64,000 nt of DNA from an uncultured Bacillota bacterium (GCA_963804645.1 CAWDRG010000002.1:138330-202329), one strand, 5' to 3'; positions 4,118-35,053 are shown, counted from the stretch's first letter. The notes: generated from the sequence alone by a model not told the origin. Translations and numbers: made by a program.

Positions 4118-4121
4118 CGAC

Positions 4122-14395: not shown

Positions 14396-14398
14396 AGG

Positions 14399-14656
14399 TC
14401 AGCCCCCCTGCATCGGGCGCACAATCTCGACGCGGTCACCCGACGCGAGCCGAACGGCCGGCCACTCGACTTTCGGGACCACGTGCTCGTTGACGGCAAC
14501 CGCCACCGCCGTCTCCCGATCCACCTGCAGCGCGTCGAGCACCTCGACCAGCGTGGCACGGGCCGGCAGCGGCCGCACCTCGCCGTTGACGGCGATCCAG
14601 GCGTCGTGCGGAGGCGTCGACCCGCTCATGGAATGCGTCCCGGCTCCCCCGCTCAT
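14399..14656 (-). CDS. thiS: Sulfur carrier protein ThiS
   Basis: Small ubiquitin-like ORF ending in GG (IVRPMQGG). The ATG at 14656 overlaps the thiO stop as ATGA. An alternative ATG at 14629 would give the shorter 76-aa form. Confidence 0.7.
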   Translation of the reverse strand: MSGGAGTHSMSGSTPPHDAWIAVNGEVRPLPARATLVEVLDALQVDRETAVAVAVNEHVVPKVEWPAVRLASGDRVEIVRPMQGG

Positions 14657-16693: not shown

Positions 16694-17358
16694 AGCGGCC
16701 AGCCCACCATCCGCCACGCCATCTCCCAGAAGAGATACTCGTAGCGCTGGCTCGCGAGGAAGATGTCCGCGAGCGCCGCTTCCCGCGACGGCGGGACGTC
16801 CGCGCCGATCCGGTCGAGCTGTGCCGCCATCCACTGCGCCATCGCCGCGTACTCGTCGGACGTGTACATCCGGATCCAGTTGGCGTAGAGCGGCGCCTCT
16901 TCCGGCAGCCCCGACCGGCGCAGGTGCACCGCGATCTCGTAGTAGCCGTGCGCGCACGGCAGCACGGCGGCCAGGATCGCGGCGAGATCGCCGGTCTCCG
17001 CGACCAGGCGCAGATGGTTGGTGTAGGCCGCGGTGGCCTGCGCCGGCACGGTGTCCTCCAGGGCCTCCGGCGAGATGCCGGCCGCCCAGCACACCTCGCG
17101 GTGCAGGTCCATCTCGACGTTCAGGGTCGCGTTGAGCACGTCGGCGAGGCGCGAGGCGGTCGCGAGCTCGTCCGCGCGCGCCACCGCGAGCGCGAGCACC
17201 CGGCAGTACTCGATGAGGAAGAGGTAGTCCTGGCGCAGGTAGAACTGGTAGCGGTCGCCTGGCAGGGTGCCGTCGCCGAGGCCCCGCACGAACGGGTGCC
17301 CCAGGATCCGCTCCCGGGTCGGCGCGGCGGCGTCCTGCAGCCGCTCAAACAACGTCAC
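16690..17358 (-). CDS. tenA: Aminopyrimidine aminohydrolase (thiaminase II)
   Basis: TenA/THI-4 family (HPFVRGLGDGTLPGDRYQFYLRQDYLFL; catalytic Cys in VLPCAHGYYEI). Start is GTG at 17358, overlapping the upstream stop (GTGA). Confidence 0.85.
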   Translation of the reverse strand: MTLFERLQDAAAPTRERILGHPFVRGLGDGTLPGDRYQFYLRQDYLFLIEYCRVLALAVARADELATASRLADVLNATLNVEMDLHREVCWAAGISPEALEDTVPAQATAAYTNHLRLVAETGDLAAILAAVLPCAHGYYEIAVHLRRSGLPEEAPLYANWIRMYTSDEYAAMAQWMAAQLDRIGADVPPSREAALADIFLASQRYEYLFWEMAWRMVGWPL

Positions 17359-18647: not shown

Positions 18648-19618
18648 GGCAGCAGGTTCACGTAGAGGTCGTCGACCGGGACCGGCGCGGGGATGACCTT
18701 GTGCGCGGCCATCCAGTGGTCGAACGCGGTCCACCGCGCGGCGCTCTCGGTCTGGGTGCGCGCGTACGTCGGGAGCGTCGCCAGGAACGAGGCGCGGTTG
18801 AACGCGTCGTTGAGCGACGGGTTCAGGCGCACGTACTGCTGAAACGCGTCCTGCGGGTGCGCCTCGGTGAACGCGATCCCGCGCGCCACCGCTCCGACGA
18901 ATCGCCGCAGGACGGCCGGCCGGGTCGCGATCTGACGGTCGCCCGCGATCAGGACGAGTTCATAGAACGTCGGGACCCCGTACCGCTCGGGCTCGAACAT
19001 CCCGACCGCCTGTCCCTGCTGTTCGATCTGGATCCGCTCGACGTTGCGGTAGGCGCCGACCACGGCGTCGATCTTGTGCGAGAGCAGCGCCGGCACGAGG
19101 TCGAAGCCCACGTTGATCATCGTCAGGTTCGACTCCGAGGCGCCGTCGCTGCGGACGATCTGATCCAGCAGGGCGTCCTCGTACCCGTTCACGGCAAACC
19201 CGACGCGCCGACCGACCAGATCCTTCGGCGTCCGGATCCCCGAGCTCTTGAGAAACATGATCGTCGTGAGCGGCTGCCCGATGAGCACGCCGATGCTCTT
19301 CACCGGCAGGGTCTGGGCACGCGCCATGATCACGCTCGGCTCATAGTTGACGCCGACGTCCGCGCGGCCGACAGCGACGAGCTTCAGCGGATCGTCGGCG
19401 TTCGCGGGCACCTGGAGGTTCACGTGCAGCCCCGCCTGGGTGAAGTAGCCCAGGCCGACGGCCGCGTACAGCGGCACGTGGTCAGGGTTCGGGAACCAAT
19501 CCAGCATGAACGTCACCGTATCGGGCGCCGCCGCGACGGTCGCGCCCGGCGCGCACAACAGTGCGATCGCGACCAGCGCCCCGAGCGCCGCCCCCCACCG
19601 CCGTCTCCTCTGTCTCAT
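18644..19618 (-). CDS. thiY: NMT1/THI5-like periplasmic binding protein (thiamin-precursor ABC transporter SBP)
   Basis: Signal peptide MRQRRRRWGAALGALVAIALLCAPG followed by an NMT1/THI5 fold (FMLDWFPNPDHVPLY). Trimmed to the ATG at 19618. Confidence 0.8.
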   Translation of the reverse strand: MRQRRRRWGAALGALVAIALLCAPGATVAAAPDTVTFMLDWFPNPDHVPLYAAVGLGYFTQAGLHVNLQVPANADDPLKLVAVGRADVGVNYEPSVIMARAQTLPVKSIGVLIGQPLTTIMFLKSSGIRTPKDLVGRRVGFAVNGYEDALLDQIVRSDGASESNLTMINVGFDLVPALLSHKIDAVVGAYRNVERIQIEQQGQAVGMFEPERYGVPTFYELVLIAGDRQIATRPAVLRRFVGAVARGIAFTEAHPQDAFQQYVRLNPSLNDAFNRASFLATLPTYARTQTESAARWTAFDHWMAAHKVIPAPVPVDDLYVNLLP

Positions 19619-19641
19619 CCGTTCCCCCTTTGCATCTCGAT

Positions 19642-20487
19642 CTACCGGCTTCCCGGCCCGGCCGCGCGGCGCCACGGCAGCGCGAGCCACTCCGCGGCGG
19701 AAACCGCCACGAAGAGCCCGAGCGCCATCACGCTCAGGTAGACGATCGCGGCAAAGACCACATCCACGTGCAGCTGTGCGTTCGCGTGGATCATCGTGAA
19801 TCCAAGCCCGCGCGCCGCGCCGACCCACTCGCCGATCACGGCGCCGATGACGCTCGTCGCGACCGCGATGCGCGTTCCGGAGAACACGAACGGGAGGGCG
19901 GCGGGAATCCGGATCTTCGTGAGGATCTGCCGGGGTCGGGCGCCGAGGATGCGCAGCAGGTTGACCATGTCGGGGTCGGCCGCGCGGAGCCCGTCCACCG
20001 TGTTGACGACGATCGGGAAGAACACGATCAGCGCCGCCATGACCACCTTCGAGGCCATGCCGTAGCCGAACCATACGATCAGGAGCGGGGCGATCGCGAA
20101 CACCGGGACCGTCTGGCTGGCGATGATCAGCGGGTAGACGGCGCGCTCCACCGTCCGCGACGAGAAGATCGCGAGCGCGAGGCCGATGCCGACGACGAAG
20201 GCCACCGCGAACCCGGCGAACACCTCCTGCAGCGTCACCCCGGCGTCCGCGAGCAGCATCGCGTGGTCCGCGATCACAACGCCGGCGATCCGGCTCGGGG
20301 CCGGCAGGATGTAGAACGGCACCCCGAACGCTCGCACCGCCCACTCCCACAGGGCGAGCACCACGAGCAGGAGCGCCGCGGGCGGCCCCGCCCGCCCGGC
20401 CCACCGCGTCCACCGGTCGGCCCAGCGGGCCGTGCCGGCGGGGCGTGGCTCGGCCGCGGGCAGCGCGTGGTGGTCGATGGTGCTCAT
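19642..20487 (-). CDS. thiX: ABC transporter permease (NitT/TauT family)
   Basis: Six predicted TM segments and an EAA-like loop. The ATG at 20487 overlaps the thiZ stop (ATGA). Confidence 0.8.
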   Translation of the reverse strand: MSTIDHHALPAAEPRPAGTARWADRWTRWAGRAGPPAALLLVVLALWEWAVRAFGVPFYILPAPSRIAGVVIADHAMLLADAGVTLQEVFAGFAVAFVVGIGLALAIFSSRTVERAVYPLIIASQTVPVFAIAPLLIVWFGYGMASKVVMAALIVFFPIVVNTVDGLRAADPDMVNLLRILGARPRQILTKIRIPAALPFVFSGTRIAVATSVIGAVIGEWVGAARGLGFTMIHANAQLHVDVVFAAIVYLSVMALGLFVAVSAAEWLALPWRRAAGPGSR

Positions 20488-21269
20488 CGGGACGCCTCGA
20501 GTAGTTCCGGCTGCAGCCACGCGAGGATCTGCGCCTTGCGCTCGACCACGCCCGCGTCCGTCGGACGGCGCGGACGCTCGAGCGGTACCGCCAGTTCGGC
20601 GCGCACCCGCCCGGGGCGCGCGGTCATGACGTAGATGCGGTCGGACAGCAGCACGGCCTCCTCGACGTCGTGGGTGATGAACAGCACCGTGCGGCCGAAC
20701 TCCTCCCGCAGCCGGAGGAGGTAGTCCTGCATCGTCGAGCGCGTCATCGCGTCGAGCGCGCCGAACGGCTCGTCGAGCACCAGCAGGTCCCGGCGGCACA
20801 GCAGCGTCCGCACCAGCGCCACGCGCTGGCGCATGCCGCCCGACAGCGTGGCGGGATACGCGCGCTCGAACCCCTCGAGTCCGAACGTCCGCAGCCACCC
20901 GAGCGCCTCCTCGCGCGCCTCGGCGCGGTCGACTCCCTGCACCTCGAGCCCGAGCGCGGCGTTGTCGACCACCGTGCGCCACGGCAGCAGGAGGTCCTTC
21001 TGCTGCATGTAGGCCACGCGGCTGCCGGTGGCCCCGAGCGGGGTCCCGTCGATCGTGACGGTCCCCTCGTCGGCGGGCACGAGGCCGGCGACGATGTTGC
21101 ACACCGTGCTCTTCCCGCACCCGCTCGGGCCGAGCAGCGTCACGAACTCGTGCTCCTCGACGTGCAGCGATACGCCGGTCAGCGCGTCCACCGACGCGGC
21201 CCCCCTGCCCCGCGCGGCCGATGCGGGAAAACGCTTCGTGACCCGTTCGATCCGGAGTTTCGTGGTCAT
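20484..21269 (-). CDS. thiZ: ABC transporter ATP-binding protein
   Basis: Walker A GPSGCGKST, signature LSGGMRQRV, Walker B LLVLDEPFGALD. A GGGAGG Shine-Dalgarno sits 4 nt upstream of the ATG at 21269. The track start at 21296 adds 9 aa. Confidence 0.85.
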   Translation of the reverse strand: MTTKLRIERVTKRFPASAARGRGAASVDALTGVSLHVEEHEFVTLLGPSGCGKSTVCNIVAGLVPADEGTVTIDGTPLGATGSRVAYMQQKDLLLPWRTVVDNAALGLEVQGVDRAEAREEALGWLRTFGLEGFERAYPATLSGGMRQRVALVRTLLCRRDLLVLDEPFGALDAMTRSTMQDYLLRLREEFGRTVLFITHDVEEAVLLSDRIYVMTARPGRVRAELAVPLERPRRPTDAGVVERKAQILAWLQPELLEASR

Positions 21270-21345
21270 CGGGCCTCCCGTGTGCCCCGCGCGCATCCGC
21301 CGCGCAACGACAACGCGCCGCTCCCGGAACCGGGGCGGCGCGCCT

Positions 21346-21440
21346 CATACTCCCTCCGCTGGCATTACCCAGATCAGGTTCCGGGGTCGATGGCAGGCAG
21401 CCATCCTCTCAGCCTGGTATACCCAAGCTCCCCCACGCTA
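21346..21440 (-). promoter_or_regulatory. TPP (thiamine pyrophosphate) riboswitch
   Basis: Minus-strand RNA reads ...GCGUGGGGGAGC...CAGGCUGAGAGG...CGACCCCGGAACCUGAUCUGGGUAAUGCCAGCGGAGGGAGU... The CUGAGA box, the ACCUGAUCUGG-UAAUGCCAGCG pyrimidine-sensing helix and the AGGGA closing are all present. It lies about 75 nt upstream of thiZ. Confidence 0.85.
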
Positions 21441-21459
21441 TTCAGTTGTTGGCCCATTC

Positions 21460-21487
21460 AGTATACCACACAGCCGTGCGCCCGCAA
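21460..21487 (-). promoter_or_regulatory. Putative sigma-70-like promoter of the thi operon (TTGCGG-N16-TATACT)
   Basis: On the minus strand, TTGCGG (21487-21482) is followed 16 nt later by TATACT (21465-21460). This is about 20 nt upstream of the riboswitch 5' end. Read by eye only. Confidence 0.3.
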
Positions 21488-21559
21488 CCGCGGCGCCGGG
21501 CCGGGCAGCGATTTCGCAAATGGACAGGGGGAAGCCAGACGCCTGCTGGTCTCGGGGCG

Positions 21560-23360
21560 GCATACAAGCTGTCGAACAGTCTTGCGGTAGATTCGCAGGC
21601 GGCACGAGTGCGCGAACGGGAACGGTGGGACGTGATGACGGGGGGAGGACCTGAAGAGTCCGAGTCGCGACTCCGGACCTGGGCATCCCGGCGCTGCCGG
21701 TCAGCTCGAGTCGCGGGTGCACCTGGGCGAACGCTGGGACGACTTGGCGCGCAACCTGGCAGAGCGTCGGCGGCGTGTGGCGGGCGTGACTCAGCACCTG
21801 GCGATGAAAGAACACCAGCAGCAGCGTATAGGCCAGGATGCGAATCATGGTGAGCACCACGAAGGCTTGATCGTGCTGCTGGTGCACCGCCGGATGCTTG
21901 AGCTGGCACTCTTTCGTCAGCGTCTGGAAGACTTCCGTATCAATGCGCCACCGCGAGCGCCCCAGCGCCGCGAGCCCCACTGGGGAACAGGCCAGCCGTC
22001 GAGGCTGCTGGCGTAGAGGTTCGTGCTCTCTTCCCACACCACCGTTTTGTGCCGCGTCCGGTGGCCCCCCTCGCGCTGCGACGCACACGCGCGTCTGCGC
22101 GTCCCGCCGCACCTCCTTGACGCACCGCACGGACCGGTCTCCCGCCGCCCAGTGCACGTCGGGCACATGCCAGCAGGTGCGTCGCGACGTCGAGGCGTAC
22201 CGTCTCCGCCGGCGTCACCTCACTCGTCCTGCGCGCCAGTTCCGCCACCAACTCGGCCTGATTGTCCTTGATGGTGCACACCCAATCGAGGCCGAGCGCT
22301 TCGATGCGCGTCGATGAACGGCTTGCCGAAATAGAGCGCATCCGCCACCAGGACGTCCACGAACCGCCGCCCCAACTGGCCCACGAGCTCCTCCAGCAGG
22401 GCCTGCGCACACGGCGACTTCGCCTTCGCCCGGCGCCTGAAAGCGCAAGCCCCAGCGGAATCGGAAACGGCGTGCTCACAACGGCGACCGCCACGATGCG
22501 GTGATAGTATTGGACGGCGGTCTGCTGGACGCCGTCGACCATCCGCTCCACCGTCCGCTCCAGACAGGTGTCGCAGCAGCGGACGTAGGACTGGCAAATC
22601 TCGATCCCGTCCACCGCGGCCACGATCAAGCCTTGCGCGGCATCCGTGCGCAGCACCCCATTGCGCTTCAGCCGGCGCGCCACCTCGCAGCCCAGCGTCA
22701 ACACCGCCTCAGGCGCCAGGCGCTCGAGGGTGTAGCGCAGCGTGTCCTCACTGAGCGGCCCGATGCGATGGCGCAGCCCGCCGGCCCGGCACTCATACTC
22801 CAACTGATGGAAGCTCGGGATCCGCCCAACCGCGCCCCAGAACACGGCGGCGAAGACCTTCTGGCACGAGTGCTGCGGGTGCTGCCGCCCCTCCGGCAGG
22901 CGGGCCAGCAGCGCCGACCAATCGAAGATTTTCTCCAAATACGCCTCGATCTCGTGCCGCCCCACCGCTACGGGGCCTTCCGCCGTTGCTGGCGCGCCAG
23001 GACGAGCAACTGCACGTTCGCCGTCCAGCACCTCGCGCACCGCGTCCTGAAACGCCCGCCCCGCGTCCACCCGCTGGCGGATCGCGTCGGCCCAGCCCGC
23101 AGGAATATGGATCACCCGCGGGCGCCCCGTCTACGCGCACCTGAGGTGCCAGGCCGGATGGCCCACGCCGGTCGCACAGTGGCACGTCGGTTTCCCGCAC
23201 CGGACATGGCTGAGCGACAGCGACCCCGGCAACATCTCGTCGACGGTCTCCGGCAGGTGCCACTGCCGCTCGAGCCCCGCCTTCCGCTGCCGCAGCCGCG
23301 CGGCCTCCGGACCTCGCGGCGCCGTGAAATCGACTCGCAACTTCGGTTTGCTCATCTTGC
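21560..23360 (-). mobile_element. Degenerate IS4/IS701-like insertion sequence (copy A; transposase split over at least 3 frames)
   Basis: N-terminal Zn-finger segment (23131-23355: RCGKPTCHCATGVGHPAWHL). Middle segment 21940-23115, DDE-region segment 22220-22597 (VLVADALYFGKPFID). C-terminal RWRIDTEVF...LAYTL segment in ORF 21438-22166. All on the minus strand but in different frames. Confidence 0.6.
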
Positions 23361-23589
23361 ATCCGAGTATAATATAAGATACGTAGAATGCAAGCCCGTC
23401 CGCAAATGCAAAAATGCTCCTTCAAGGGTGCCTACCGAAAACCCCGCTGCAGCGGGGCCTAGCCGTCACTCCAGCCCGCCGTTTACGAAATCACTGCCGG
23501 GCCGCGCAGGCATTTCGGAATACGGTCTGGGTCACAAGGAGCCCAGGATCCGACGCCTCCCCGAAGGGACAGGATTGAGCAAGCGGCTG

Positions 23590-25250
23590 GCCTACGAACG
23601 TCGGTACGGGTGCTGGAGGGGCGAATTTCGGGGGGTGCAGAGAGGTTGGCGACGCTGGCGGAGGGTCGGCAGAGCAGAGCCGAGTGGCGCTATGGCTGAA
23701 CCGCTGTTGGCAACGGCCGGGGATAAGCCGAGATTGATCCGCAGCGCGCGCACGAACTGAATCGCTGTCCGCACACCGTGGCTGCCGCGATGCAGATGGC
23801 GCAGCCGATACAACCGCTCGATCGTCAACGCGAGGAACAGCAGGAGCCAGTTGGCAACGATGCTCGTGGCGTGATGGTGGCAGAGGTGTTCCATCCCATG
23901 CAGCGTCTTGGCCACGTTGAAGCCTTCGTTTTCAATCGCCCACCGGCTCTTCGCCATGAGGAACAGCGCCTGGCTCGGGACCTGCGCCATCGGCCAGTCG
24001 GTGAGCCACATCGCTTCGATGACCTTGCCCGTAGGTTTCGTCTGCCGATACAGGAGCACGCGCACCCGGGCCCAGCGCAGAGTCCCCCAGGGCGCGAAGT
24101 TCTCCGCATCCCACACCTCCACGACATCGCCGCGGTAGGTGAACCGGTGCGTGGGGGCATGCCCGCATAGCGTTGTCGCGCCGCCGCGTAGAGGTTCGGC
24201 AAGTTCTTCTTAAGGCGGACCACGGCATGCAGCCCCAGATCGCCGACCGTGTGCAGGAACGGCACCTTCGCAAAGTTGCCGTCCGCCACGACGTAATCGG
24301 CGAACCGCCGGCCCAGGGCCGCGATCCCCCGCGTCAGCACACGCAGCGCCGCCGCGTACTCACTATCGCGCGGCCCGTACAGCTCCACATCGCACGGCAA
24401 GGGCAGCGTGCTGCCCACAACGCTCAGCAGCACTACGTGATGCCGGTACCCAAGAAGCGGCAGCGCTGTTTCGTGTAACCCGACGTCGTCGTCCCGTCCA
24501 CGGCCAGGCCGATCCACGGCGTGCCCGCGAAGGCCTTCGTGCGCTTGGCCCACCGCAGGACGCCGGCCAGACCGCCCGAGTGCGCCCCGGATCCATGCGG
24601 GCCGTGAAATAGGCGAGAGCGTCATTCCCAAACGCGCGGCACACCGCCAGCGCGCGCCGCGCCCGTGACCGCACCAACGCTTCCACGCCCGCGAAAGAAT
24701 CTTCCCGCAGCACATGGCCGACCACCAAGCCCCACACCAATGCGCGCGCAGGAATCCGCGGGCGGAGCCGGCCATCGCCCGGCCGCTCAAAAAAGTCGCC
24801 CAAACGAAGGATATGCGTGACGTACTTCCAGAGCCGACGGGGCGTCGGCCCGCTCACCGCCGCCGCTTCCGCGCCAACACGAACTGCTCCGCGTTGGCCG
24901 TGAGCACGTCGCGCACCGCCTCCTGTAGCGCTCGCCCGGCCGCGACGCGCTGCGCCACTTCTTCCGCCCATTCCTGCGGCACGCGCTCTGTGCGCTTCCG
25001 TCCCTTCACCGTGAAGCTCAATGTCCAGGCGGGATGCCCCGGGCCTGTCGCACAATGACACCCCGGCTGTCCGCACCGCGTCTCGCTCCGTGTGAGCGAC
25101 CCGGGCAACATCGCCGTCACGCTCGCTGGCAGCTGAAAGCGGCGGATCAGCGCATGGCTACGCTGCCGCAGCTTTGCGGCCTCATCTCCGGTCAGCTCGC
25201 GTGGACTCATCGCGTCTCGCATCTTGTAGGTATACTCCTACAAGATTCCC
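23590..25250 (-). mobile_element. Degenerate IS4/IS701-like insertion sequence (copy B, diverged paralog of copy A; frameshifted transposase)
   Basis: 24854-25222 N-terminus (RCGQPGCHCATGPGHPAWTL; IPQEWAEEVAQRVAAGRALQEAV, parallel to copy A). 23825-24790 DDE core (YVVADGNFAKVPFL...VVRLKKN). 23592-24122 C-terminus (SRWAIENEGFNVAKTL). The 5' leader shares blocks with copy A (CCGCAAATGC-AAAAT). An 8-bp perfect inverted repeat CTTGTAGG-TATACT-CCTACAAG lies at 25223-25244. Confidence 0.6.
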
Positions 25251-25476
25251 GCAAAGTCAAGGGGTCCTTACCAAATGCGAAAATAGAACCCCCGATGTCT
25301 CTACACCGGGGGGTGGCTCAAATCCGCTCTGAAGACGTGCGCCTTACTTATGACCCTCGACTATTCCGAAACTACGCGGGCCGCGGTAGTGTCAAGAGTT
25401 ATGTGTAGATTCCCTTGAGAGAGAGCGCCTCGCCTGCCGGACGTTCAGGGCATAGACGATCGCATAAATAATCCGA

Positions 25477-26111
25477 TCACAGCTGGCTACGTTCGTGAAG
25501 CACGTATGGGGCGCGTGCGCCGGCGGACTTCGCGAAACACGCGTTCAATCGCATTTGTGGTGCGGACCCGGCGCCAGTCCGCCTCGGCGACGGATAGAAG
25601 CTGAGCAGGGCGTCCTCCTCGCGCGTCAGACAGGCGACCGCGGCGGGGGCGGTGGCCTGCCAGGCCTGGACCCACTGGCGCAGGAGGCGGCGCGCGGCGT
25701 GGGTGGTCGGTGCCTGATAGATCCGGCGCGCCATGCGCAAACACGCCTCCCGGTCCTTGACCCGCAGCCGATTGGCCACGTTGCGGAGGACATGGACCCA
25801 GCACGCTTGGCGCGGGATGACCGAATAGACCAAATCGAGGGCGGCATGGAGGCCCCGATGACCGTCCGTGGTAATCAGCTGCAACTGCTTCCCCACTAAC
25901 CCCCGGCAGGCCAGCGTCGTGAGAAAGGCTTCCAGGTGGCTTGGGTCTCGTAGCGAGCCAGCCGGAAATCGATCAGGTCCCGCTGCCCGGTGGGCCGAAT
26001 GCCGTAGGCCACGAGAATCAAGCGGCGCTTGCTTCCGCGAGCCCTTTCACCCGGAGGCTGACGGCGTCGAGGAACAGATATTGATTCGGATAACCCACTC
26101 GCTATAAACAC
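25477..26111 (-). mobile_element. IS256-family transposase, 3' portion (fragment, frameshifted)
   Basis: ITTDGHRGLHAALDLVYSVIPRQACWVHVLRNV (DDE, Mutator/IS256 type). WRRVRTTNAIERVFREVRRRTR in a second frame. KRRLILVAYGI in ORF 25896-26111. Confidence 0.65.
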
Positions 26112-26359
26112 GAGCTTTGACCACTAGCGACGAATCTCGAACGTGGTTGGCTTATGGCGAACCGATGACACCGATTGCCTGCGCGTAACTGAGGTGGACA
26201 CATTCGCCCGGCGAGCAGGCTGGCCCGCCCACGCCGCGCGGAATCGGCCGTGGGTCCAAGTAGCGTGCATCCACCTGTGCGTCTCCGTCAGAGATGAGGT
26301 AGTGACCCATGCGCGGATCGGGACCAGGAGCGCTGTAACCGTAGCGTGCGCCGGTGGGA

Positions 26360-26652
26360 CTACCCGGTAACGACCGGCACCTTCTTTAGATAGGTCGGAG
26401 TGAGTGCGTCGAGCGTCTTTGGATACGCGTTTTTGTGGTCGACAGCGTACTCTTCGAGCGCCGTCGCGATCGTCTTGAGAAACGCGAGATCGACGATCGT
26501 GTAGATGGCGCGCGGGTCGCGGCTGGGGTTCATGGCGCCGCGATCTGCACGTCGAGCAGGGGGACAGATAACATAGACCCTGCGGCACGCGCCCCATCCG
26601 ACAAGCACACAAGCGCGGCAATCGAGAGAACCGCGAATAGGCGTCGTCTCAT
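26360..26652 (-). CDS. Two translationally coupled mini-ORFs in a low-GC pocket: a 41-aa signal-peptide-like ORF and a 57-aa type II secretion pseudopilin-like fragment
   Basis: ORF1 26527-26652 is MRRRLFAVLSIAALVCLSDGARAAGS... ORF2 26360-26533 is MNPSRDPRAIYTIVDLAFLKTIATALEEYAVDHKNAYPKTLDALTPTYLKKVPVVTG, resembling the GspG-type pilin globular domain. The two are joined by an ATGA overlap. Local GC is clearly lower than the flanks. Possibly one gene with a frameshift. Confidence 0.3.
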
Positions 26653-26836
26653 GATGCTCTCCTTTATGTCGAACACAGTCTAAACCGGGATTTCCATTGT
26701 CTGTGTCTGAACACCTTGTGTTGAAGGAGTCCATCTGGCTCTTCAGGGACGAGTGTGACCGACGGCCCCATGAAAGGCTGTTCGGGCCCGTCCGAAACCC
26801 CCAATCCCGGGCATGGTCGCGCTGGCCACCGATTTC

Positions 26837-28293
26837 TCAGACACGTCCCCCTCGGCCTCCTTCTCGTCCTTGTTGGCCGCGACGATCGCCGGCTGCTATC
26901 CCGCCGGCACCGACAGCGTCGTAAGCCGCTGCACGATCGCCCCGAACAGTTGCCGCGTGAGGTGCCCCTCCGCCAGCAGCAGCCAGTAGTATCGGGCGTG
27001 TTTCACGAGCCGGCCACCCGTCTTCATCAGCCGCTGCTGCAGACTCGTCAGCGACCAGCGTGTCGATCCGCTTCGGCAGCCCGAGCCGCCGCCAGAGGTT
27101 CCCCAGATTGTACGCAATGATGCTCAGCCACAACCGCACCTCATTCGCCCGGAACCGGTGGCAACTCAATCGCGTCATCTTCACTGCCTGTTTGCCCTCC
27201 TTGATCCACTGCTCCGCCGTCCCGCGTTTATTGTAGAACCGCACCACCGCCCGGCTGTCTGTCGCCAGGGTCGTCACGATGAAGCCCACTCGAGGAAACA
27301 GTTCCCCGCAGTGGAACTCGATCTTCGCCACCACGCGCCGCGCGATCTTCCAACTCGCGGCCTGGTACCGGAAGCTCGTGTACCGCACCACCGGCTTGTG
27401 ACTGGGTCGCCCGACCGGCCGCGTGAGCAGCTCCGCGATGGCCCGCTCCAAGATGTCGTTGGAGGGGATGCGAATGGCGTACGTTGCGTTCCGCGTCTCC
27501 AGGGCTTCGTAGAGCTCCGGCTTGGCAAAACCGGCATCGGCCCGGACGACCACGTCCTTGCCCTGCCGCTGCTGCCGCTCGAGCTCGGGCAGCAGCACCT
27601 GGTCCCACTCCTCGGCGCTGTGGACGTTGCCCGGTCGCAGCTTTGCCGCCAGACAGTCGCCCTCCCGATTGAACAGCAGCAGCGGATGGTAGCAGGTCGA
27701 CGCAAAGTGCCCGTTGTAGGCGCTCTGCTCCTGCTGGCCGTAGACAGGGATCTCGGTACTATCGAGATCGAGCACCACCCGCTGCGGGGTGTCCACGGGG
27801 TCCACCCGTGCGATCAGCTCCCGATTGATCGCGGCCAGCCCGGCGAGGTTCTCATCTTGGGTCAGCAACTCCGTCTCGAAGGAGTGCGCCCGGGACGTCA
27901 GGGCGGCCCCGCGCTCCCAGACGCTGCTCCGACCCGATCAGCCGGAAGGTCGGATCCTGGGAGAGGCGTTCAGCATCATTCACGTCCTCGTACCCCGCCA
28001 ATCGGCGGTAGACCGATTGCCGGACCAGGTCGGCGAGCGGGAACTGCGTGTTCGTGCCCCGCGGATCGGTCAAGTGCTGTGCGATGAGGGTCGCTGAAGC
28101 CCAACCGCTCGTCCAGTTCGCGGACGAGGATCAGGCCGCCATCGGAGGTGACCCGCGCCCCCTGGAACTCGATCTTCAACGCGGTGTTGAACGAGAGCTG
28201 AAAGGGCTGATCGACTAGCGTCCGGTGGTGGAAGGCCGCTGCGGCTTGATCCAAGGTCTGGGTGATCGTCGAGACGGTCGTGGGACTGACCAC
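26837..28293 (-). mobile_element. IS1380-family insertion sequence (transposase in 3 frames), nested inside the IS256 element
   Basis: 27976-28293 (KIEFQGARVTSDGGLILVRELDERLGF). 27852-28073 (VRQSVYRRLAGYEDVNDAERLSQDP). 26837-27868 (DLDSTEIPVYGQQEQSAYNGHF...KRGTAEQWIKEGK...WLSIIAYNL). Confidence 0.7.
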
Positions 28294-28660
28294 GTCGTCG
28301 AGGAAATTGGCGAGGACGGGCCGACCTGGCGGGTGGAGAGGCCGCAGAGGAAGACGGCGCGGACGAGTGCGTTGACGTCACTGGTGCGGCGCTGGTAGCG
28401 GCCGAGCACCGAGGGCTGGACCCCGCTCTGGGGGCCCGGGGAATATGGAGATCGGGGATGGTGCCCCACGTCGTCACCAAACGGCGGCGGTAGACGCCAT
28501 TCCGATACCCCGGCCGGTCCGGATTCCGAGTATACCGGCCAGCATTCAGATGGTTGATCAACTCGTCATGCATCCGGTTCTCCAGCAAGAGCTTGACCGT
28601 GCCGAGCGTCTCCCGCGAGACGTCCCCCACAAGGTTCCTTCGTCCTTGACCTCTTTCCAC
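28215..28660 (-). mobile_element. IS256-family transposase, 5' portion (fragment), separated from its 3' portion by the IS1380 insertion
   Basis: LLENRMHDELINHLNAGRYTRNPDRPGYRNGVYRRRLVTTWGTIPDLHIPR, plus a second frame with RYQRRTSDVNALVRAVFLCGLSTRQV. Both are hallmark IS256 N-terminal blocks. Confidence 0.6.
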
Positions 28661-28984
28661 AGATCGGTGACCGTGAGATCGGTCAGTGGTCGCACACTGG
28701 CCATGGGCGTATCCCTCCTTTTCGTTGGTCAGGTCTGGGGTACGCTCTCTCCCTTGGGGTCCCTGCTTTTACACACAACACCGTACACTGCCGGCCGCGG
28801 GCGCACGGATCACCCCGTCGCTGGCGCGGCCCGGCAGGCGGCGCCGATGCGGCACAGGAAAATGCGTCCGGCGCCATGAACTCAGACAGCGCCGAAGACG
28901 TTTCTGTACGCGATCTCACCATGCTGGGTGTGGACGGCGGGGACGGCTGCGGCTGGCCTGGACGCATGCGGGGAGGACGGCGAC

Positions 28985-29455
28985 ATGCTATCGCGATTCA
29001 CCGAGTGGCGTGGACAGAAGGATAGTCGGGCGATCCGCGCCAGGTTCAAGCTTGCGCTCGTGGGACGGGTCTCGTTGTTCGCGGGGCTGAGCAAACGGGA
29101 AGTCGGCCTGATCGCCAATCTGATCAACGAGGCGGAGTTTCCGGCGGGGACCCAGCTGGTGAAAGCGGGAGAGCCCGGCACGGAGATGTTTATCATCGTC
29201 AGCGGCGACGCCGTCGTCAGGACGAAAGCGGGACGAACCATCCGGTTGAAGGCCGGAGATTTCTTTGGGGAGATGAGCGTGATCGACGGGGCCCCGCGGG
29301 CCGCGACCGTGGACGCCAGCACCCCGATTCGGGTGTTGGTGCTGGGGCAGCGCGACTTTTGGCGCGTGCTGGACGGGTCGAAAGCGATCGTGCGCAAGAT
29401 CATGCACACGCTCTGCGAGCGCCTCCGGGAGACCGACAAATCGGCCTCGGAGTGA
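28985..29455 (+). CDS. Stand-alone cyclic-nucleotide-binding (CNB/cNMP) domain protein
   Basis: About 156 aa with the CAP-effector-domain signature (FFGEMSVIDGAPRAATV; phosphate-binding cassette). No output domain. ATG at 28985. Confidence 0.8.
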   Translation: MLSRFTEWRGQKDSRAIRARFKLALVGRVSLFAGLSKREVGLIANLINEAEFPAGTQLVKAGEPGTEMFIIVSGDAVVRTKAGRTIRLKAGDFFGEMSVIDGAPRAATVDASTPIRVLVLGQRDFWRVLDGSKAIVRKIMHTLCERLRETDKSASE

Positions 29456-29558
29456 GCGGCGGCCCGCGACCGGCCGCCCGCCTGGTGATGCGCGGCCACC
29501 GCCGTCGAGAGCCCCGCGGGCGGTGTCGCACCGCTTCGCAGCGGAGCTAGTGGTTCGG

Positions 29559-32500
29559 ATGCAGTGCCCCGCCTGCGGTTTCGAAAGCCCCCCGGGCATG
29601 CGCTTCTGCGGTCAGTGCGGAGCGATGCTCGCTCCGCCCGCGCCGTCCGCCGAAGAACGCAAGCTGGTGACCGTCCTGTTTGCCGACGTGGTCGGGTCCA
29701 CCGCGCGCTCGGGCGCGGTCGATCCAGAGCAGGTGCGGCGGCAGATGTCGCGCTTCTTCGAAATCGCCAATGAGGAGATCCGCCGGTACGGCGGGACCGT
29801 GGAGAAATTCATCGGGGACGCGGTCATGGCCGTCTTCGGGCTCCCCCTGATCCACGAGGACGATCCCGAGCGGGCGGTACGCACCGCGGCGGCACTCAAA
29901 TCGCGGGTGGCCGCCGAGGTCGAGGCCGCGACGCTCCCCGAGATTCGGATCGGCATGAACACCGGGGAGGTCGTGGCCGATCCGCAGGCGACCGACAAGG
30001 GTGAGTTCCTGGTGACCGGTGAGGTGGTGAACCTTGCGGCCCGACTCCAGCAGCACGCCCAGCCGGGCCAGGTCCTCTTAGGCGAACGCACCGTGCGTGC
30101 GCTCGGCGACATCGCCTACGTGCGTCCGGTGACGCCGCTGACGGTGAAAGGCGCATCCGCTCCCCTCTTGGCCTGGGAACTGCTCGGGGTCGCCCCTCCG
30201 CGGGAACGCACGGTGCGAGCGACACCGTTTGTGGGTCGGGCCGAGGAACTCGACATGCTGCTGGGTCATGCCCGGCGGATACGGCGCGGGCGCCGGGGAT
30301 TCATGATCAGCATCCTGGGACCGGCCGGGGTGGGCAAAACGCGCCTGGTGAGGGAGTTGTGTGCCCGGATTGAGGGCGTCCGCGTCCTCCGCGGTCGGGC
30401 GCTGCCCTACGGGACCGGGGTGCCGTTCTGGGCGCTCGGGGAAGTGATCCGCGAGGAATCCGGCATTTTGATGGGAGACCCGCTGAGCCGCGCGCGCCGG
30501 AAGCTCCAGGACACGACCGACCGCCTGGGGATCCCGGACGCCGCCCCCGCGCTGCTGGCGGTCTTGGGGCTCGGTCCGGACGGACACGGATTGCCTCGGG
30601 ACGCGCTCTTTTCCGGCGTGCGCGCGTTCTTCCAGGCCGTGGCCCGAACTGGACCGCTCCTGATGATTGTCGAGGACGTGCACTCCGCCGAGGACGTCAC
30701 GTTAGACTTTTTCGAGCAGATGACGCTTTGGGTCCGCGAGACGCCGGTGCTGCTGCTGGTGCTCGCGCGGCCCGAGCTGCTCGAGCGGCGCCCGATGTGG
30801 GTGGTCGGCACGCGCACCTCCACGACGCTCTTTCTTGATCCCCTGCTTGGCGAGGAGAGCCGCGCGCTGGTGCAGGGGATCCTGGACGGCAAGCCGGCAC
30901 CCGGTCCGCTCGTGGAACGGCTGCTGGAGCGGTCGGAGGGCAACGTGCTCTTCGTGGAAGAGATGCTGCGGTCGCTGCTCGACCGCGGGGCCCTGACGAA
31001 AGAGGCCGATCGGTGGGTCCTCACGGTGCCGCTCGACGAGATGGCGATCCCCGATACCGTCCACGCGGTGATCGCGGCGCGCATCGATGCCCTGCCGGGG
31101 TCGGAGAAGCTCGTCCTGCAGACGGCGTCCGTCATGGGGCAGGTCTTCTGGCTCGGGGCCGTGCGTGTCATCGCCGGCGAGACCCAGGTGGACGATGCGC
31201 TCTGGGCGCTGGTCGTGAAGAACCTGTTGGTCCTCAATCAGCGGTCCGCCCTCGAAGGCGAGGACGAGTTCAGCTTCCGAAACATTCTGATCCGTGACGT
31301 CGCCTATGCGATGCAGCCCAAATCTGTGCGGTGGCCCAAACACCGACGCGCGGCGGAATGGATGCAGGAGATCGGCGGGGACCGCCAGGACGAACTGGCC
31401 GACGTGATCGCCTATCACTGGCTGCAGGTGATGGCGCTGCGCGAGGACTTGGGGCTGCCGCCCGAGGCGCGGGCACGCGAGCACGCGATCGCGAACCTGC
31501 TGCTGGCGGGAGACCGGGCGGCGGCGCTGTACGCGAATACGACGGCGCTCGACCACTTTACGCGCGCGCTGGAGCTGGAGCCCCCGCCCACCGCGCGCCT
31601 GCGGGTCCTGCTCGGCCGCGGGGAGGTCCGGATGCTGCTCGGACAGCACGAGCCGGCGCGCGACGACTTTGCCGCGGTGCGCGCCCTCGCGCGGGAGGCG
31701 GACGCGCCGCGGTGGGAAGCGATCGCGCTCGATCGCCTGGGCTACTCGTACGGGCGGCAGGACCAGATCACCCAAGCGCTGGAGCACCTCGAGCCGGCCC
31801 TGACGCTGAGCCGCGCGGTGAACGATCCGTCCCTCACCGGGCGCGTGCTCAACCATATGGGGTTTGCGTACTTCCACCAGTCCAAGCACGGCGAAGCGTT
31901 CACCATGCACGAAGAGGCCCGCCGGCTCCTCGACGCATGCGGAGACACGGCCGGCCTCGCCGAGAGCCTGCACGGATTGGGGGACACCTGCGGCTTCTTG
32001 GGCCGGTTCCAGGAAGCGATCGAGTGGTACCAGCAGGCGGTCGACGTGAGCGAGCGGATCGGGCAACGCTCGCTCGCCGGCGAGAGCCGGTACATGATCG
32101 CCTGGCTTCGCAAGAAGCAGGGCGCCTACGCGGACGCCCAGGCGGAGGCCCAGCGCAGCGTCGCCGAGCTGACGGAGATCGGCGACGTGTGGAACACGTC
32201 CTTCGCGCTCACGCGCCTCGCGGAGATCGCGAATACCCTGGGCCAGTTTGGCGACGCGCTGAAGCTCACCGCGCAGTCGCTGGGCCTCGCGCGGGAGATC
32301 GACGCCGGCCGGCAGGCGGTGTCCAGCCTGCTGGAGAGCGGCACGACACGTCGCGAGCTGGAAGACCACCGGGGGGCCTGGGCGGCCGATCGCGAGGCGA
32401 TTGAACTCGCGCACGCGGGTGAAGTCGCCGCGTATTGGATGCCGCTCGTCCTATCCTCGCTGGCCCTGGACAGCGCGGGGCTCGGCCGAGCGAGCGCGGC

Positions 32501-32993
32501 GCGGTCGTACATCGAGTACGCTCGGCGCGCCCTCGCCGAAGGGCCGAACCGCGCGGACTATCGACAGCAAGTGACCTATGCGCAGGGACGGGTGCAGTTG
32601 ACACTGGAGCAACCCGCCGACGCGCGAGCCACAGCGGACCAGCTCCTGGCCATGGCGGTGACCACCGAGACGTTGCACTGGCGCGTGCCCGCGATGCTGC
32701 TCGCGGCCGACGCGACCGCCGCGCTCGGGGACCCGTCGGCCGCGCGGGTCACGTACGAGTTGACGGCCGCAGACGCGGAGCGCCTGGGCCTCGCGCCGGC
32801 CCTCTGGCGGGCGCTCGCCGGGCTGGCCGAGGTGCAGCGGGCGTTGGGGCAGGCGCAGGCGTCAGTCGGGAGCGCGACGCGGGCCCGAGAGATCATCGAT
32901 CGCCTGGCCGCGACCGTGGCCGATCCTGAGCTGCGCGCAACGTTCCTGCACTCGGCGAAGGTCCAGCGGGTCACGGCGCTCGCGGGCGCCTGA
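29559..32993 (+). CDS. Zinc-ribbon / class III nucleotidyl (adenylyl/guanylyl) cyclase / P-loop STAND NTPase / TPR multidomain protein
   Basis: N-terminal CPACGF...RFCGQCG zinc ribbon. CHD cyclase core (KLVTVLFADVVGST...KFIGDAVMAVFG...RIGMNTGEVV). Walker A ILGPAGVGKTRL and NB-ARC-like region. About 500 aa of TPR-like helical repeats follow. No HTH output. An alternative GTG start at 29523 adds 12 aa. Confidence 0.85.
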   Translation: MQCPACGFESPPGMRFCGQCGAMLAPPAPSAEERKLVTVLFADVVGSTARSGAVDPEQVRRQMSRFFEIANEEIRRYGGTVEKFIGDAVMAVFGLPLIHEDDPERAVRTAAALKSRVAAEVEAATLPEIRIGMNTGEVVADPQATDKGEFLVTGEVVNLAARLQQHAQPGQVLLGERTVRALGDIAYVRPVTPLTVKGASAPLLAWELLGVAPPRERTVRATPFVGRAEELDMLLGHARRIRRGRRGFMISILGPAGVGKTRLVRELCARIEGVRVLRGRALPYGTGVPFWALGEVIREESGILMGDPLSRARRKLQDTTDRLGIPDAAPALLAVLGLGPDGHGLPRDALFSGVRAFFQAVARTGPLLMIVEDVHSAEDVTLDFFEQMTLWVRETPVLLLVLARPELLERRPMWVVGTRTSTTLFLDPLLGEESRALVQGILDGKPAPGPLVERLLERSEGNVLFVEEMLRSLLDRGALTKEADRWVLTVPLDEMAIPDTVHAVIAARIDALPGSEKLVLQTASVMGQVFWLGAVRVIAGETQVDDALWALVVKNLLVLNQRSALEGEDEFSFRNILIRDVAYAMQPKSVRWPKHRRAAEWMQEIGGDRQDELADVIAYHWLQVMALREDLGLPPEARAREHAIANLLLAGDRAAALYANTTALDHFTRALELEPPPTARLRVLLGRGEVRMLLGQHEPARDDFAAVRALAREADAPRWEAIALDRLGYSYGRQDQITQALEHLEPALTLSRAVNDPSLTGRVLNHMGFAYFHQSKHGEAFTMHEEARRLLDACGDTAGLAESLHGLGDTCGFLGRFQEAIEWYQQAVDVSERIGQRSLAGESRYMIAWLRKKQGAYADAQAEAQRSVAELTEIGDVWNTSFALTRLAEIANTLGQFGDALKLTAQSLGLAREIDAGRQAVSSLLESGTTRRELEDHRGAWAADREAIELAHAGEVAAYWMPLVLSSLALDSAGLGRASAARSYIEYARRALAEGPNRADYRQQVTYAQGRVQLTLEQPADARATADQLLAMAVTTETLHWRVPAMLLAADATAALGDPSAARVTYELTAADAERLGLAPALWRALAGLAEVQRALGQAQASVGSATRAREIIDRLAATVADPELRATFLHSAKVQRVTALAGA

Positions 32994-33178
32994 GCGAGTC
33001 GCCCCGCGCGCAGCGTCACGGCGTCCTGCTCGGCATGGCGGGACGCGGTTCCAGGGTGGCCGCGACACTCCGGGCCACGCGCACGCGACGGTGCGTCCAC
33101 CTCGGGTCCCGGGTTCGCGTGCGACCGAGAGTGTATAATACGGTCCATCAGCCCCAACCCAGTGGTGGAGGCGACCTC

Positions 33179-33607
33179 ATGGTGTTCGGCCCGTCGAGCA
33201 AGGTGCAGATGCTCGAAAAAGTGCCGCTGTTCAGCGGTCTCTCGCGAAAACAGCTCCAGCAGGTCGCCCGGGTCGTCGACGAAGTCGACGTCCCGGCGGG
33301 CAGGCGATTGGCAACCGCCGGCGAGAGCGGTGACGAGCTGTTCGTGATCGTGGAAGGGACCGCCACGGTGCGGACGCCGCGGGGGCGCGCGGTGCGCCTC
33401 GGCCCCGGAGAGTTTTTCGGCGAGATGAGCCTCGTCGACGGTGGTCCCCGATCGGCCGACGTCGACGCGGGCACCGCAATGCGGCTCCTCGTGGTCGACC
33501 GACGCGCCTTCTGGGGGCTGCTGGCCGCGGCGCCCCCGCTCGTTCCCAAAATCATGAGCACGCTGTCGCGCCGACTGCGCGACGCGCAGGGTTCGATCTC
33601 GTCCTGA
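33179..33607 (+). CDS. Stand-alone cyclic-nucleotide-binding domain protein (paralog of 28985-29455)
   Basis: FFGEMSLVDGGPRSADV cassette. Alignable along its full length with the upstream CNB protein. GGTGGAGG Shine-Dalgarno 7 nt before the ATG at 33179. Confidence 0.8.
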   Translation: MVFGPSSKVQMLEKVPLFSGLSRKQLQQVARVVDEVDVPAGRRLATAGESGDELFVIVEGTATVRTPRGRAVRLGPGEFFGEMSLVDGGPRSADVDAGTAMRLLVVDRRAFWGLLAAAPPLVPKIMSTLSRRLRDAQGSISS

Positions 33608-33664
33608 TGCCGGAGTCACGGCGCACGACCCGACCGGCCGACGCCGGCCGGTCGCGAGGAGGGT

Positions 33665-33949
33665 GTGGTGAACGCGGTGTGGCGCGGTCAGGTGATTGCG
33701 GCGAGCGATCGAACGCTCGAGGTCGGCGGCTACCGGTACTTCCCGCGCGAGGACGTCCGCATGGACCTGCTGCGGCCGACCCCGAAGACCCAGCGTGATC
33801 TCGCCTGCCCGCACGGGGTGCAGTTCTTCGACGTCGTCGAGGGCACGGCGCGCAGCCCACGGGCTGCATGGTCGTACGAAGCGCCCCGTCCGTCGATGAC
33901 GCAGGTCGATCGGTGGATCGGCTTCTGGGAGGACGTGCAGTTCGAATGA
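33665..33949 (+). CDS. DUF427 domain protein
   Basis: 94 aa. GGYRYFPREDV...CPHGVQFFDV...AWSYEAP matches the conserved DUF427 blocks. Confidence 0.75.
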   Translation: MVNAVWRGQVIAASDRTLEVGGYRYFPREDVRMDLLRPTPKTQRDLACPHGVQFFDVVEGTARSPRAAWSYEAPRPSMTQVDRWIGFWEDVQFE

Positions 33950-34117
33950 AGGCGTCCCGCGGCGCGGCGCGCGTCCGACTCGTCGCACGACCCCGCGTGT
34001 AACCGCGTGCGGGCGGCCTGCGGGGCTCGGATGGCCCGCACGGAGCTCGCGCCGGCGTCCCGCAGGCCGCCCGCGGCGCCGGCCGCGTGTGGGTCCCGAC
34101 GATAACGTACATCCGAC

Positions 34118-35053
34118 GTGATGCCGATGGAGATGCTCCTCGAGGTGCACGACCTCGTCAAGGTATTCGGACGCGCCCGGGCCGTGGACGGCGTGTCGTT
34201 CACCATTCCGAAAGGCCGCATCGTGGGCCTCCTCGGGCCGAACGGCGCCGGGAAGACCACCACGATCCACATGCTGCTCGGCCTCATCACGCCGACGGCG
34301 GGGCGCATCGTGTACTTCGGGCGGGAGTTTCCCCGACACCGATCCGCGTGCCTTCAGCGGATCAACTTTGCGTCCTCGTTCAACACGCTCCAGGGCCGGA
34401 TCTCCGTGTGGGAAAACCTCGCGGTGTTCGCCCGGCTGTACGGACTCCGCGCGCCGCGCGCGAAGATCGAGTCGCTGGCCGCGTACTTCGGGGTGACCGC
34501 GCTGCTGCATGCGCGGTATTGGGACCTCTCGGCGGGTGAGCGCACCCGCGTCAACCTCATCAAGGCGCTGCTGAACGACCCCGAGCTCATTCTGATGGAC
34601 GAGCCGACGGCGGCGCTCGATCCGGACATCGCCGACAAGACGCTCGCGCTGATCGAGGAGATCCGCCGCGTGTCCGGGGTCTCGATTCTGTACACCAGCC
34701 ACGACATGCACGAGGTCACCCGGATCTGCGACGACGTCATCTTTCTCGACCGCGGCCGGATCTTCGCCCACGACACGCCGCTCGGGCTGACGAAGCGCAT
34801 TCGCACGGCGACGCTCGCGCTCACGTTCGACGGCGACCGGGCCGTCGTCGAACGCTTCCTCACCGAGCGCGGGGCGCGGTTCCGGTTCACGCACCCGTTC
34901 TCGGTGTCGATCGAGACGACCGAGCAGGCGCTCCCGAGTCTCATTTTTGACGTCGCCACGACCGGCGTGTGGATCACCGACGTCGACGTCAAGAAGCCCA
35001 CCCTGGAGGACGTGTTTCTCACGATCGCGCGGGGGCCGCGCCGTGTCGACTGA
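34118..35053 (+). CDS. ABC transporter ATP-binding protein (ABC-2/DrrA-like)
   Basis: Walker [10 protein letters not shown], signature LSAGERTRV, Walker B ILMDEPTAALD. Confidence 0.85.
   Translation: MMPMEMLLEVHDLVKVFGRARAVDGVSFTIPKGRIVGLLGPNGAGKTTTIHMLLGLITPTAGRIVYFGREFPRHRSACLQRINFASSFNTLQGRISVWENLAVFARLYGLRAPRAKIESLAAYFGVTALLHARYWDLSAGERTRVNLIKALLNDPELILMDEPTAALDPDIADKTLALIEEIRRVSGVSILYTSHDMHEVTRICDDVIFLDRGRIFAHDTPLGLTKRIRTATLALTFDGDRAVVERFLTERGARFRFTHPFSVSIETTEQALPSLIFDVATTGVWITDVDVKKPTLEDVFLTIARGPRRVD

Follow-up and report, generated by a model that had tools for sequence, protein, structure and literature searches.

The 64,000-nucleotide stretch of DNA analysed here, referred to as the window, derives from an uncultured Bacillota bacterium (GCA_963804645.1, CAWDRG010000002.1:138330-202329) and has a G+C content of about 70%. 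The gene cluster examined lies at positions 28985-33949 and is built around a large protein that combines a zinc ribbon, a class III cyclase, an AAA_16 STAND ATPase and TPR repeats. The first gene (28985-29455) encodes CNB1, a protein of 156 amino acids with a cyclic-nucleotide-binding (CNB) domain (PF00027 cNMP_binding, E = 1.9e-18). It is followed by the cyclase gene (29556-32993), whose product comprises 1145 amino acids from an ATG start, by the gene for a second CNB protein, CNB2 (33179-33607; 142 amino acids; PF00027 cNMP_binding, E = 7.6e-18), and by a DUF427 gene (33665-33949; 94 amino acids; PF04248, E = 1.5e-15). All four genes share the plus strand and are separated by short spacers. 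Four co-oriented, tightly spaced genes had been described in an earlier note on this DNA; all four are present, and the Pfam domains agree with that description. An alternative upstream GTG start at 29523 would extend the cyclase protein to 1156 amino acids, and the lengths of orthologues match the starts chosen here (156 amino acids for CNB1, 1141-1146 for the cyclase, 141-147 for CNB2 and 93 for the DUF427 protein). The cluster is read, with a probability of about 0.7, as a chromosomal housekeeping-type signalling module based on cyclic adenosine monophosphate (cAMP), in which a STAND/TPR-gated adenylate cyclase is accompanied by a cognate single-domain receptor, and not as an immune system.

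The cyclase protein starts with a Cys4 zinc ribbon (about 29565-29630, plus strand), which gives weak Pfam matches (DZR, 5e-4). The cyclase domain is located at about 29652-30152 on the same strand (Guanylate_cyc, E = 4.3e-20), scoring 72.5 bits against the class III cyclase model PF00211 with its cutoff of 21.9. The AAA_16/MalT-type STAND ATPase at about 30225-30725 (plus strand; AAA_16, E = 4.3e-18; 66.8 bits, cutoff 32.6) contains the Walker A motif GPAGVGKT and the Walker B sequence IVEDVHSAED. A helical region connects it to a TPR array at about 31470-32990 (plus strand; TPR_12, 9e-24; MalT-like TPR, 4e-12). No helix-turn-helix (HTH) or other DNA-binding domain was detected in the protein with Pfam at E up to 0.01. 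The domain composition given in the earlier note, including the lack of a DNA-binding domain, is confirmed by Pfam, with the zinc ribbon as its weakest part.

Residue conservation was analysed in an alignment of 32 orthologues that are 52-69% identical to the window protein. The metal-binding residues D44 (in FADVVGST) and D88 (in IGDAVMA), whose absence would have meant an inactive enzyme according to the earlier note, are both present and invariant, as is the transition-state residue R163 (in VVNLAARL). The second transition-state residue N159 of the same motif, the substrate lysine K84 and the phosphate-binding K198 are nearly invariant. These catalytic residues align to those of Cya2 and CyaB, and the best solved structures in a profile search are the Pseudomonas aeruginosa CyaB, Cya2 and CyaC cyclases. 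The domain is predicted to be catalytically competent, and the large protein is a soluble class III nucleotidyl cyclase, probably of the adenylate type. In the phmmer alignment, K84 lies opposite E488 of Cya2 (2W01). The engineered variant 6FHT, whose PDB entry names it an adenylate cyclase, also has a lysine at this position. The presence of Lys84 speaks for a purine product and against a pyrimidine cyclic nucleoside monophosphate (cNMP). The second substrate-specificity residue is Asp in canonical adenylate cyclases. The window protein has Leu152 there, and the aligned residues of P. aeruginosa CyaB and of Cya2 are Thr and Gly, respectively. Of the Lys/Asp pair named in the earlier note, the lysine is thus present, and the second position is neither Asp nor Thr.

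In the STAND core, the ED-x-H region of Walker B (E373, D374, H376) is invariant among the 32 orthologues. PDB sequence and profile searches with the STAND/TPR part returned generic TPR proteins and a weak match to the PH0952 sensor, and no homologue of the NTPase core among solved structures. Mean pairwise identity amounts to 0.49-0.58 in the TPR region versus 0.66-0.67 in the enzymatic core; conservation of the TPR sensor is only moderately lower than that of the core, with no hypervariability.

A protein search with the large protein yielded at least 7980 homologues at E < 1e-10, out of 8000 candidates scored, and nearly all of the top 120 carry PF00211, PF13191 and TPR repeats. About 75 clusters make up the orthologue clade; most are 52-69% identical, and two closer members reach 86% and 98%. 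Beyond this clade, identity falls to 40% or less. The named sources within it are uncultured "bacterium" entries or Armatimonadota metagenome-assembled genomes, and by this distribution the window would probably stem from an organism of the same kind. A cyclase, MalT ATPase, TPR and LuxR HTH architecture has been described for Rv0386, Rv1358 and Rv2488c of Mycobacterium tuberculosis (bioRxiv 10.1101/2024.03.06.583649). The architecture of the window protein is very common and corresponds to the Rv0386 type minus the LuxR HTH. Among NCBIfam models, all matches of the large protein are below threshold, including one to the AfsR TPR region. The TOMM kinase/cyclase fusion model TIGR03903 reaches 206.7 bits where 705.75 are required, covering profile positions 283-890 with no kinase domain.

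Tandem paralogue pairs of cyclase-STAND-TPR genes are frequent, as in loci L001 (4569-11423), L167 (6001-13476) and L169 (6001-12879), and further pairs occur in L085, L087, L093, L119 and L126. This points to repeated local duplication in this sensor family. Disrupted copies were also observed: the cyclase gene in L161 (8001-10061) is cut at 686 amino acids and followed by Sigma54_DBD fragments, and that in L170 (3508-6877) is split into parts of 912 and 224 amino acids.

Both CNB proteins consist of little more than the nucleotide-binding fold. They score 66.7 (CNB1) and 64.7 bits (CNB2) against PF00027 (cutoff 27.5), and the cassette FGE...R-[STA]-A is intact in each. The phosphate-binding cassette of CNB1, FGEMSVIDGAPRAATV (FGE...PRAA), is of the kind found in the regulatory subunit of protein kinase A (PKA), and that of CNB2 is FGEMSLVDGGPRSADV (FGE...PRSA). 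Both cassettes align to PKA RI-alpha and to MlotiK1. PKA RI-alpha and the MlotiK1 cyclic-nucleotide-binding domain (CNBD) are also the best solved-structure matches, with E-values reaching 1e-25 to 1e-14. The CNB2 family comprises more than 120 clusters that are 62-82% identical and mostly 141-147 amino acids long (range 132-172). PF00027 is matched throughout, with weak cupin matches in a few, and no HTH match in Pfam was found in any of these clusters. Since length is conserved in this CNB-only family and no HTH is present, CNB1 and CNB2 are not fragments of Crp/FNR regulators; that possibility was rejected, the proteins stopping after the B/C helices of the CNB fold. The view of the earlier note that the cyclase is flanked by genuine CNB-domain-only proteins is therefore upheld. 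CNB1 and CNB2 are 48% identical to each other. Upstream of the cyclase, a CNB1 orthologue (92% identical) is found in L161 and a 156-amino-acid CNB gene likewise in L170, both close relatives; CNB1 is absent upstream of the other orthologous cyclases. CNB1 is a recent, lineage-restricted paralogue of CNB2.

Members of the CNB2 family also occur with no cyclase nearby. Two such proteins, 64-70% identical, are encoded in L171 (419-2450) and L172 (5707-7435). There, the CNB2-family gene directly follows a PALP enzyme and a small open reading frame (ORF), which is ThiS-like in L171 and unannotated in L172. The PALP/small-ORF setting is a second recurrent context of the CNB-only family.

The conservation of the neighbourhood was assessed at two depths. 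The distant set consisted of 160 loci with homologues of 30-47% identity from genome and metagenome collections, of which 154 could be scored; they were searched by tblastn with the window CNB1, CNB2 and DUF427 proteins, and a CNB gene was counted as adjacent within 1.5 kb of the cyclase. Such a gene was present in 10 of 154 loci (about 6%), and DUF427 was next to the cyclase in none of the 154. Genome and metagenome scans with the orthologue alignment mostly returned paralogues of 30-45% identity, with three orthologue loci among the matches listed. Orthologue loci were collected one by one and grouped by flanking synteny, which resulted in eight independent contexts, four of them with a CNB gene downstream of the cyclase. 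The first (i) is formed by the window, L170 and L161, with the order CNB1-cyclase-CNB2-DUF427; the set is complete in L170 and in L161 is limited to CNB1 and the first 686 cyclase codons. In the second (ii; L001, L169 and L173, three genomes), the order is mfd-surA-mazG-S4-eno-divIC-S1-(cyclase)-cyclase-CNB-...-xanthine dehydrogenase. The third (iii; L081) has cyclase-CNB, and the fourth (iv; L167, L168 and L015) a 149-amino-acid ORF, the cyclase, a CNB gene and a second cyclase paralogue. The remaining contexts have no downstream CNB gene: L162 (v) has an S-adenosylhomocysteine (AdoHcy) hydrolase gene upstream, and L163 (vi), L164 (vii) and L165 with L166 (viii) have no conserved order. Other neighbours of orthologues are dnaG/sigma-70, the AdoHcy hydrolase and further metabolic genes.

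The gene immediately downstream of the cyclase encodes a CNB2 orthologue with 60-75% identity in L001, L081, L167/L168, L169 and L173, and with 81% protein identity in L170, so that conservation of the downstream CNB protein equals or exceeds that of the cyclase. The order of cyclase then CNB, with a short spacer, recurs in at least four flanking contexts (window/L170, L001/L169/L173, L081 and L167) at a cyclase identity of 55-60%, and is conserved deeper than the flanking synteny. The cyclase-CNB2 pair is a recurrent but facultative two-gene unit. The earlier note had held that its proposal would fail if homologous cyclases usually lacked adjacent CNB or DUF427 genes. Family-wide they do lack them, and within the orthologue clade this is true of CNB2 in half of the contexts. 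A four-gene system is not borne out, as DUF427 is absent except in L170 and CNB1 is found only in two close relatives. The locus L015 had been taken up as an independent CNB-cyclase pair and was rejected, since it is of the same type as L167. The 149-amino-acid ORF directly upstream of the cyclase orthologue in L167 (5401-5850) and L015 (3739-4185) has no Pfam match, and no similarity of this conserved ORF to CNB1 or CNB2 was found. In a further homologue, P0092 (1489 amino acids), zinc ribbon, cyclase, AAA_16, TPR and CNB domains are fused in the same order as the genes of the window. Its C-terminal tail of about 200 amino acids (residues about 1290-1489) has no Pfam match.

MalT- and PH0952-type STAND proteins are autoinhibited until the sensor binds its ligand, upon which they oligomerise in an ATP-dependent manner, and the active sites of class III cyclases form only at the dimer interface. 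A ligand bound to the TPR array would thus be expected to switch on cAMP synthesis. In the proposed sequence of events, autoinhibition would be relieved once a ligand or a partner protein occupies the TPR array, allowing ATP-dependent oligomerisation of the STAND core. Oligomerisation would juxtapose two cyclase domains, and the paired domains would produce cAMP. The nucleotide would then be bound by CNB2, in this lineage also by CNB1. CNB2, the putative cognate partner of the cyclase and encoded directly downstream of it, would most likely act in one of two ways, either as a cAMP-dependent switch of protein-protein interactions or by binding to the cyclase and regulating it through feedback. 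The P0092 fusion hints at feedback on the cyclase scaffold.

Several observations weigh against a cAMP module of cyclase and cognate CNB2. No CNB gene adjoins the cyclase in four of the eight independent orthologue contexts (L162-L166), and close CNB2 homologues occur away from any cyclase, which makes the pairing facultative. The CNB domain of P0092 is only 33% identical to CNB2, so the fusion is an independent one. Both close relatives carry a split or truncated cyclase gene, which suggests either dispensability, if the decay is real, or indel errors of the assemblies. Lastly, Leu152 leaves cAMP a likely, not a certain, product. The first of these points would be expected if cyclase and CNB proteins were independent parts of a general cAMP network and their adjacency no more than inherited synteny, as would the low share of distant homologues with a CNB neighbour and the CNB2-family genes found beside PALP/ThiS genes far from any cyclase. 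Coincidental neighbourhood is nevertheless regarded as rather unlikely, because the cyclase-CNB order and short spacer persist in at least four flanking contexts, beyond the reach of the flanking synteny, and because a CNB domain has independently been fused to the C-terminus of a homologous cyclase. The Leu152 position bears on a different alternative, in which the enzyme makes cyclic guanosine monophosphate (cGMP) or a pyrimidine cNMP, or is a regulatory pseudo-enzyme; the best single-sequence PDB match of the cyclase is indeed Cya2 (2W01), described in published work as a guanylate cyclase. This appears quite improbable: the purine-specifying Lys84 stands where Cya2 has Glu, the Lys-bearing Cya2 variant is deposited as an adenylate cyclase, and the cassettes of the partner CNB proteins are PKA/Crp-like. 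The invariant or nearly invariant metal-binding, transition-state and phosphate-binding residues speak against a pseudo-enzyme.

A dedicated two-protein device, in which CNB2 would dock on the STAND/TPR scaffold in the manner of a PKA-R regulatory subunit and cAMP would feed back on signalosome assembly, is considered unlikely, and still less likely is its variant as a messenger-based immune sensor with an effector encoded elsewhere. If either version were true, it would provide a first function for a large and uncharacterised class of bacterial single-domain CNB proteins. A further rival is an anti-phage or abortive-infection role of the locus itself, a defence system having been one of the options of the earlier note. 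An Avs/NLR-like STAND sensor would recognise a phage protein via its TPR repeats and fire the cyclase effector, and the CNB proteins, with or without DUF427, would relay the nucleotide by a Pycsar/CBASS logic. The succession of effector, STAND and repeat sensor is common to Avs and bacterial NLR proteins, and published catalogues of bacterial NACHT proteins and of predicted conflict systems include N-terminal cNMP cyclase domains (10.1101/2022.07.19.500537; PMC7159879). Moreover, the PADLOC profiles PycC and PycTIR match the cyclase and CNB domains (E = 1e-19 and 1e-15), and insertion sequence (IS) debris adjoins the locus. The PADLOC matches are, however, limited to the generic cyclase, CNB and TPR portions; CNB1 and CNB2 match only the CNB portion of the PycTIR profiles (about positions 30-146), with no TIR or transmembrane domain. 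No Avs or other STAND defence profile was matched in PADLOC at E up to 0.01, and no toxic effector domain was found in the cluster with Pfam. DUF427 is not conserved with the cyclase, the TPR sensor is not hypervariable, and the debris was inserted secondarily into a spacer that measures 40 bp in L161. Orthologues are embedded in syntenic core housekeeping clusters and also occur as tandem paralogues. Their neighbours are core or metabolic genes with no defence genes among them, a negative that has no enrichment statistic behind it. A literature search combining STAND NTPase, adenylyl cyclase and anti-phage retrieved no report of an AAA_16/MalT-type cyclase-STAND protein in phage defence. A defence function is accordingly held to be very improbable. 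Of the two options left by the earlier note, an uncharacterised defence system is disfavoured by the missing Avs match, the missing toxic effector and the housekeeping neighbours, and a cyclic-nucleotide signalling locus is supported by intact cyclase motifs, intact CNB cassettes and the recurrent cyclase-CNB2 pairing.

The locus is placed within the MalT-type STAND family, among its multidomain class III adenylate cyclases, with Rv0386, Rv1358 and Rv2488c as the closest named members. These share an N-terminal class III cyclase, an AAA_16/MalT-type STAND ATPase and a TPR-like region in the same order, and are likewise soluble, about 1100 amino acids long and part of a multi-paralogue signalling family. 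The window protein differs from them in lacking the C-terminal LuxR HTH and in having an additional N-terminal Cys4 zinc ribbon and an adjacent single-domain CNB gene; it also stems from another phylum. The specificity pair of Rv0386 is reportedly Gln/Asn, compared with Lys/Leu here. With MalT and PH0952, the window protein shares the AAA_16 Walker A motif, a hhhhED-H-x-x-ED Walker B region and a C-terminal TPR sensor, as reflected in the MalT-like TPR Pfam matches and the weak PH0952 TPR-sensor match, and ligand-triggered oligomerisation is presumed. Its output, unlike theirs, is a cyclase enzyme and not a DNA-binding domain.

The resemblance to Pycsar lies in a class III-type cyclase gene that adjoins a gene for a cNMP-binding-domain protein, and in the PADLOC PycC/PycTIR matches to these shared domains. 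In contrast to Pycsar, a TIR or transmembrane killing domain is missing from the CNB proteins of the window, the cyclase is equipped with STAND and TPR modules and a purine-type Lys, and the context is a housekeeping one. Avs and bacterial NLR proteins share with the window protein an N-terminal enzymatic domain, a STAND NTPase and a C-terminal repeat sensor. Here, however, the N-terminal domain would make a second messenger and is not a nuclease, protease or NADase, no Avs match was obtained with PADLOC, and genes of this type are inherited vertically and syntenically among core genes, with a moderately conserved sensor. The CNB proteins resemble the PKA regulatory subunit, the MlotiK1 CNBD and stand-alone CNB proteins (PDB 2PQQ, 3GYD) in their single CNB fold and FGE...R(A/S)A cassette. 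At 142-156 amino acids, they differ from PKA-R and MlotiK1 in having no kinase-inhibitor segment, channel or HTH.

The cyclase-STAND-TPR architecture is already known; the modest new part is its conserved pairing with a CNB-only protein, of a family with 62-82% identity whose genes, in Armatimonadota-like bacteria, repeatedly follow directly on that of a STAND-gated adenylate cyclase. The pair provides a concrete test case for signalling by a single-domain cAMP receptor and for the regulation of full-length cyclase-STAND-TPR proteins, which is also a question for Rv0386. In addition, a plausible-looking but unsupported defence candidate is removed, and the locus illustrates that IS debris beside a gene cluster may have been inserted recently and is not necessarily the sign of a defence island.

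The DUF427 gene is a clear family member (57.2 bits against a PF04248 cutoff of 22.1), and its only solved-structure match is the uncharacterised PDB 3DJM (E = 6e-6). DUF427 is a beta-tent fold domain of which the function is not known (PMC4287342). The earlier note had considered it as a possible effector of the module. This role was rejected, given the lack of any tblastn match at the distant loci and its occurrence in L170 alone among orthologue loci. L170 has about 83% DNA identity to the window, and the presence of DUF427 there is inherited synteny and not functional evidence. A literature lead to "Menshen" was also discarded, because it concerns DUF4276 and was a mere prefix match. Downstream of DUF427 follow genes for an ABC-2 transporter, an AIR-synthase-like protein, a GFO/IDH/MocA oxidoreductase and a DegT aminotransferase, and further on those for an SRPBCC protein, a GTPase and a branched-chain amino-acid ABC transporter. 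All of these are commonplace genes of transport or metabolism. Like the ABC transporter and the IS debris, DUF427 is a bystander with no relation to the cyclase-CNB2 pair.

The IS debris occupies 21505-28841, upstream of CNB1 and outside the module, and consists of 7.3 kb of transposase fragments. The earlier note had correctly recorded some 7 kb of debris near the cluster, and had taken it to indicate an accessory or defence-island context. Within the debris are fragments of Mutator-family transposases, a DDE_Tnp_1_4 transposase and DUF6788 ORFs, and the G+C content falls to 0.63-0.67 across it. L161 is colinear with the window over 14168-21505 and 28841-31613, with 40 bp between the two blocks (L161 7216-7257). 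In L170, the same two breakpoints enclose a single 1.5 kb IS with an HTH transposase (L170 1206-2697). Since the spacer is 40 bp in L161 and the breakpoints recur in L170, the debris is no sign of an accessory or defence island, and its use as such a marker was rejected. Specifically in this lineage, insertions have piled up to 7.3 kb within a single divergent intergenic spacer, with the chromosome around it syntenic, and the spacer left of CNB1 is a local hotspot of IS insertion. An ORF of 396 amino acids with no Pfam match lies inside the debris (21940-23130, minus strand), adjoined by two DUF6788 ORFs (23131-23421 and 24854-25237, both minus strand); the three are perhaps parts of an uncharacterised mobile element.

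The debris separates CNB1 from a thi/ABC operon on the minus strand. This ABC/NMT1/TenA/ThiE/ThiO/ThiS/ThiG operon, which is syntenic with L161, is led by a thiamine pyrophosphate (TPP) riboswitch at 21334-21444 (minus strand; RF00059, 54.5 bits against a gathering score of 54.3). Rfam and tRNA scans gave no match inside the four-gene locus. A promoter scan of 28600-34300 returned no promoter-like site, and the terminator-like sites in this interval are all intragenic; the scan is not read as bearing on operon structure. Convergent to the cyclase orthologue of L163 lies a gene for a hydrolase of the metallo-beta-lactamase (MBL) fold (3727-4563, minus strand). It scores 18 bits against the anti-Pycsar Apyc1 profile (cutoff 50), a match given no weight, and the enzyme might be a cNMP phosphodiesterase.

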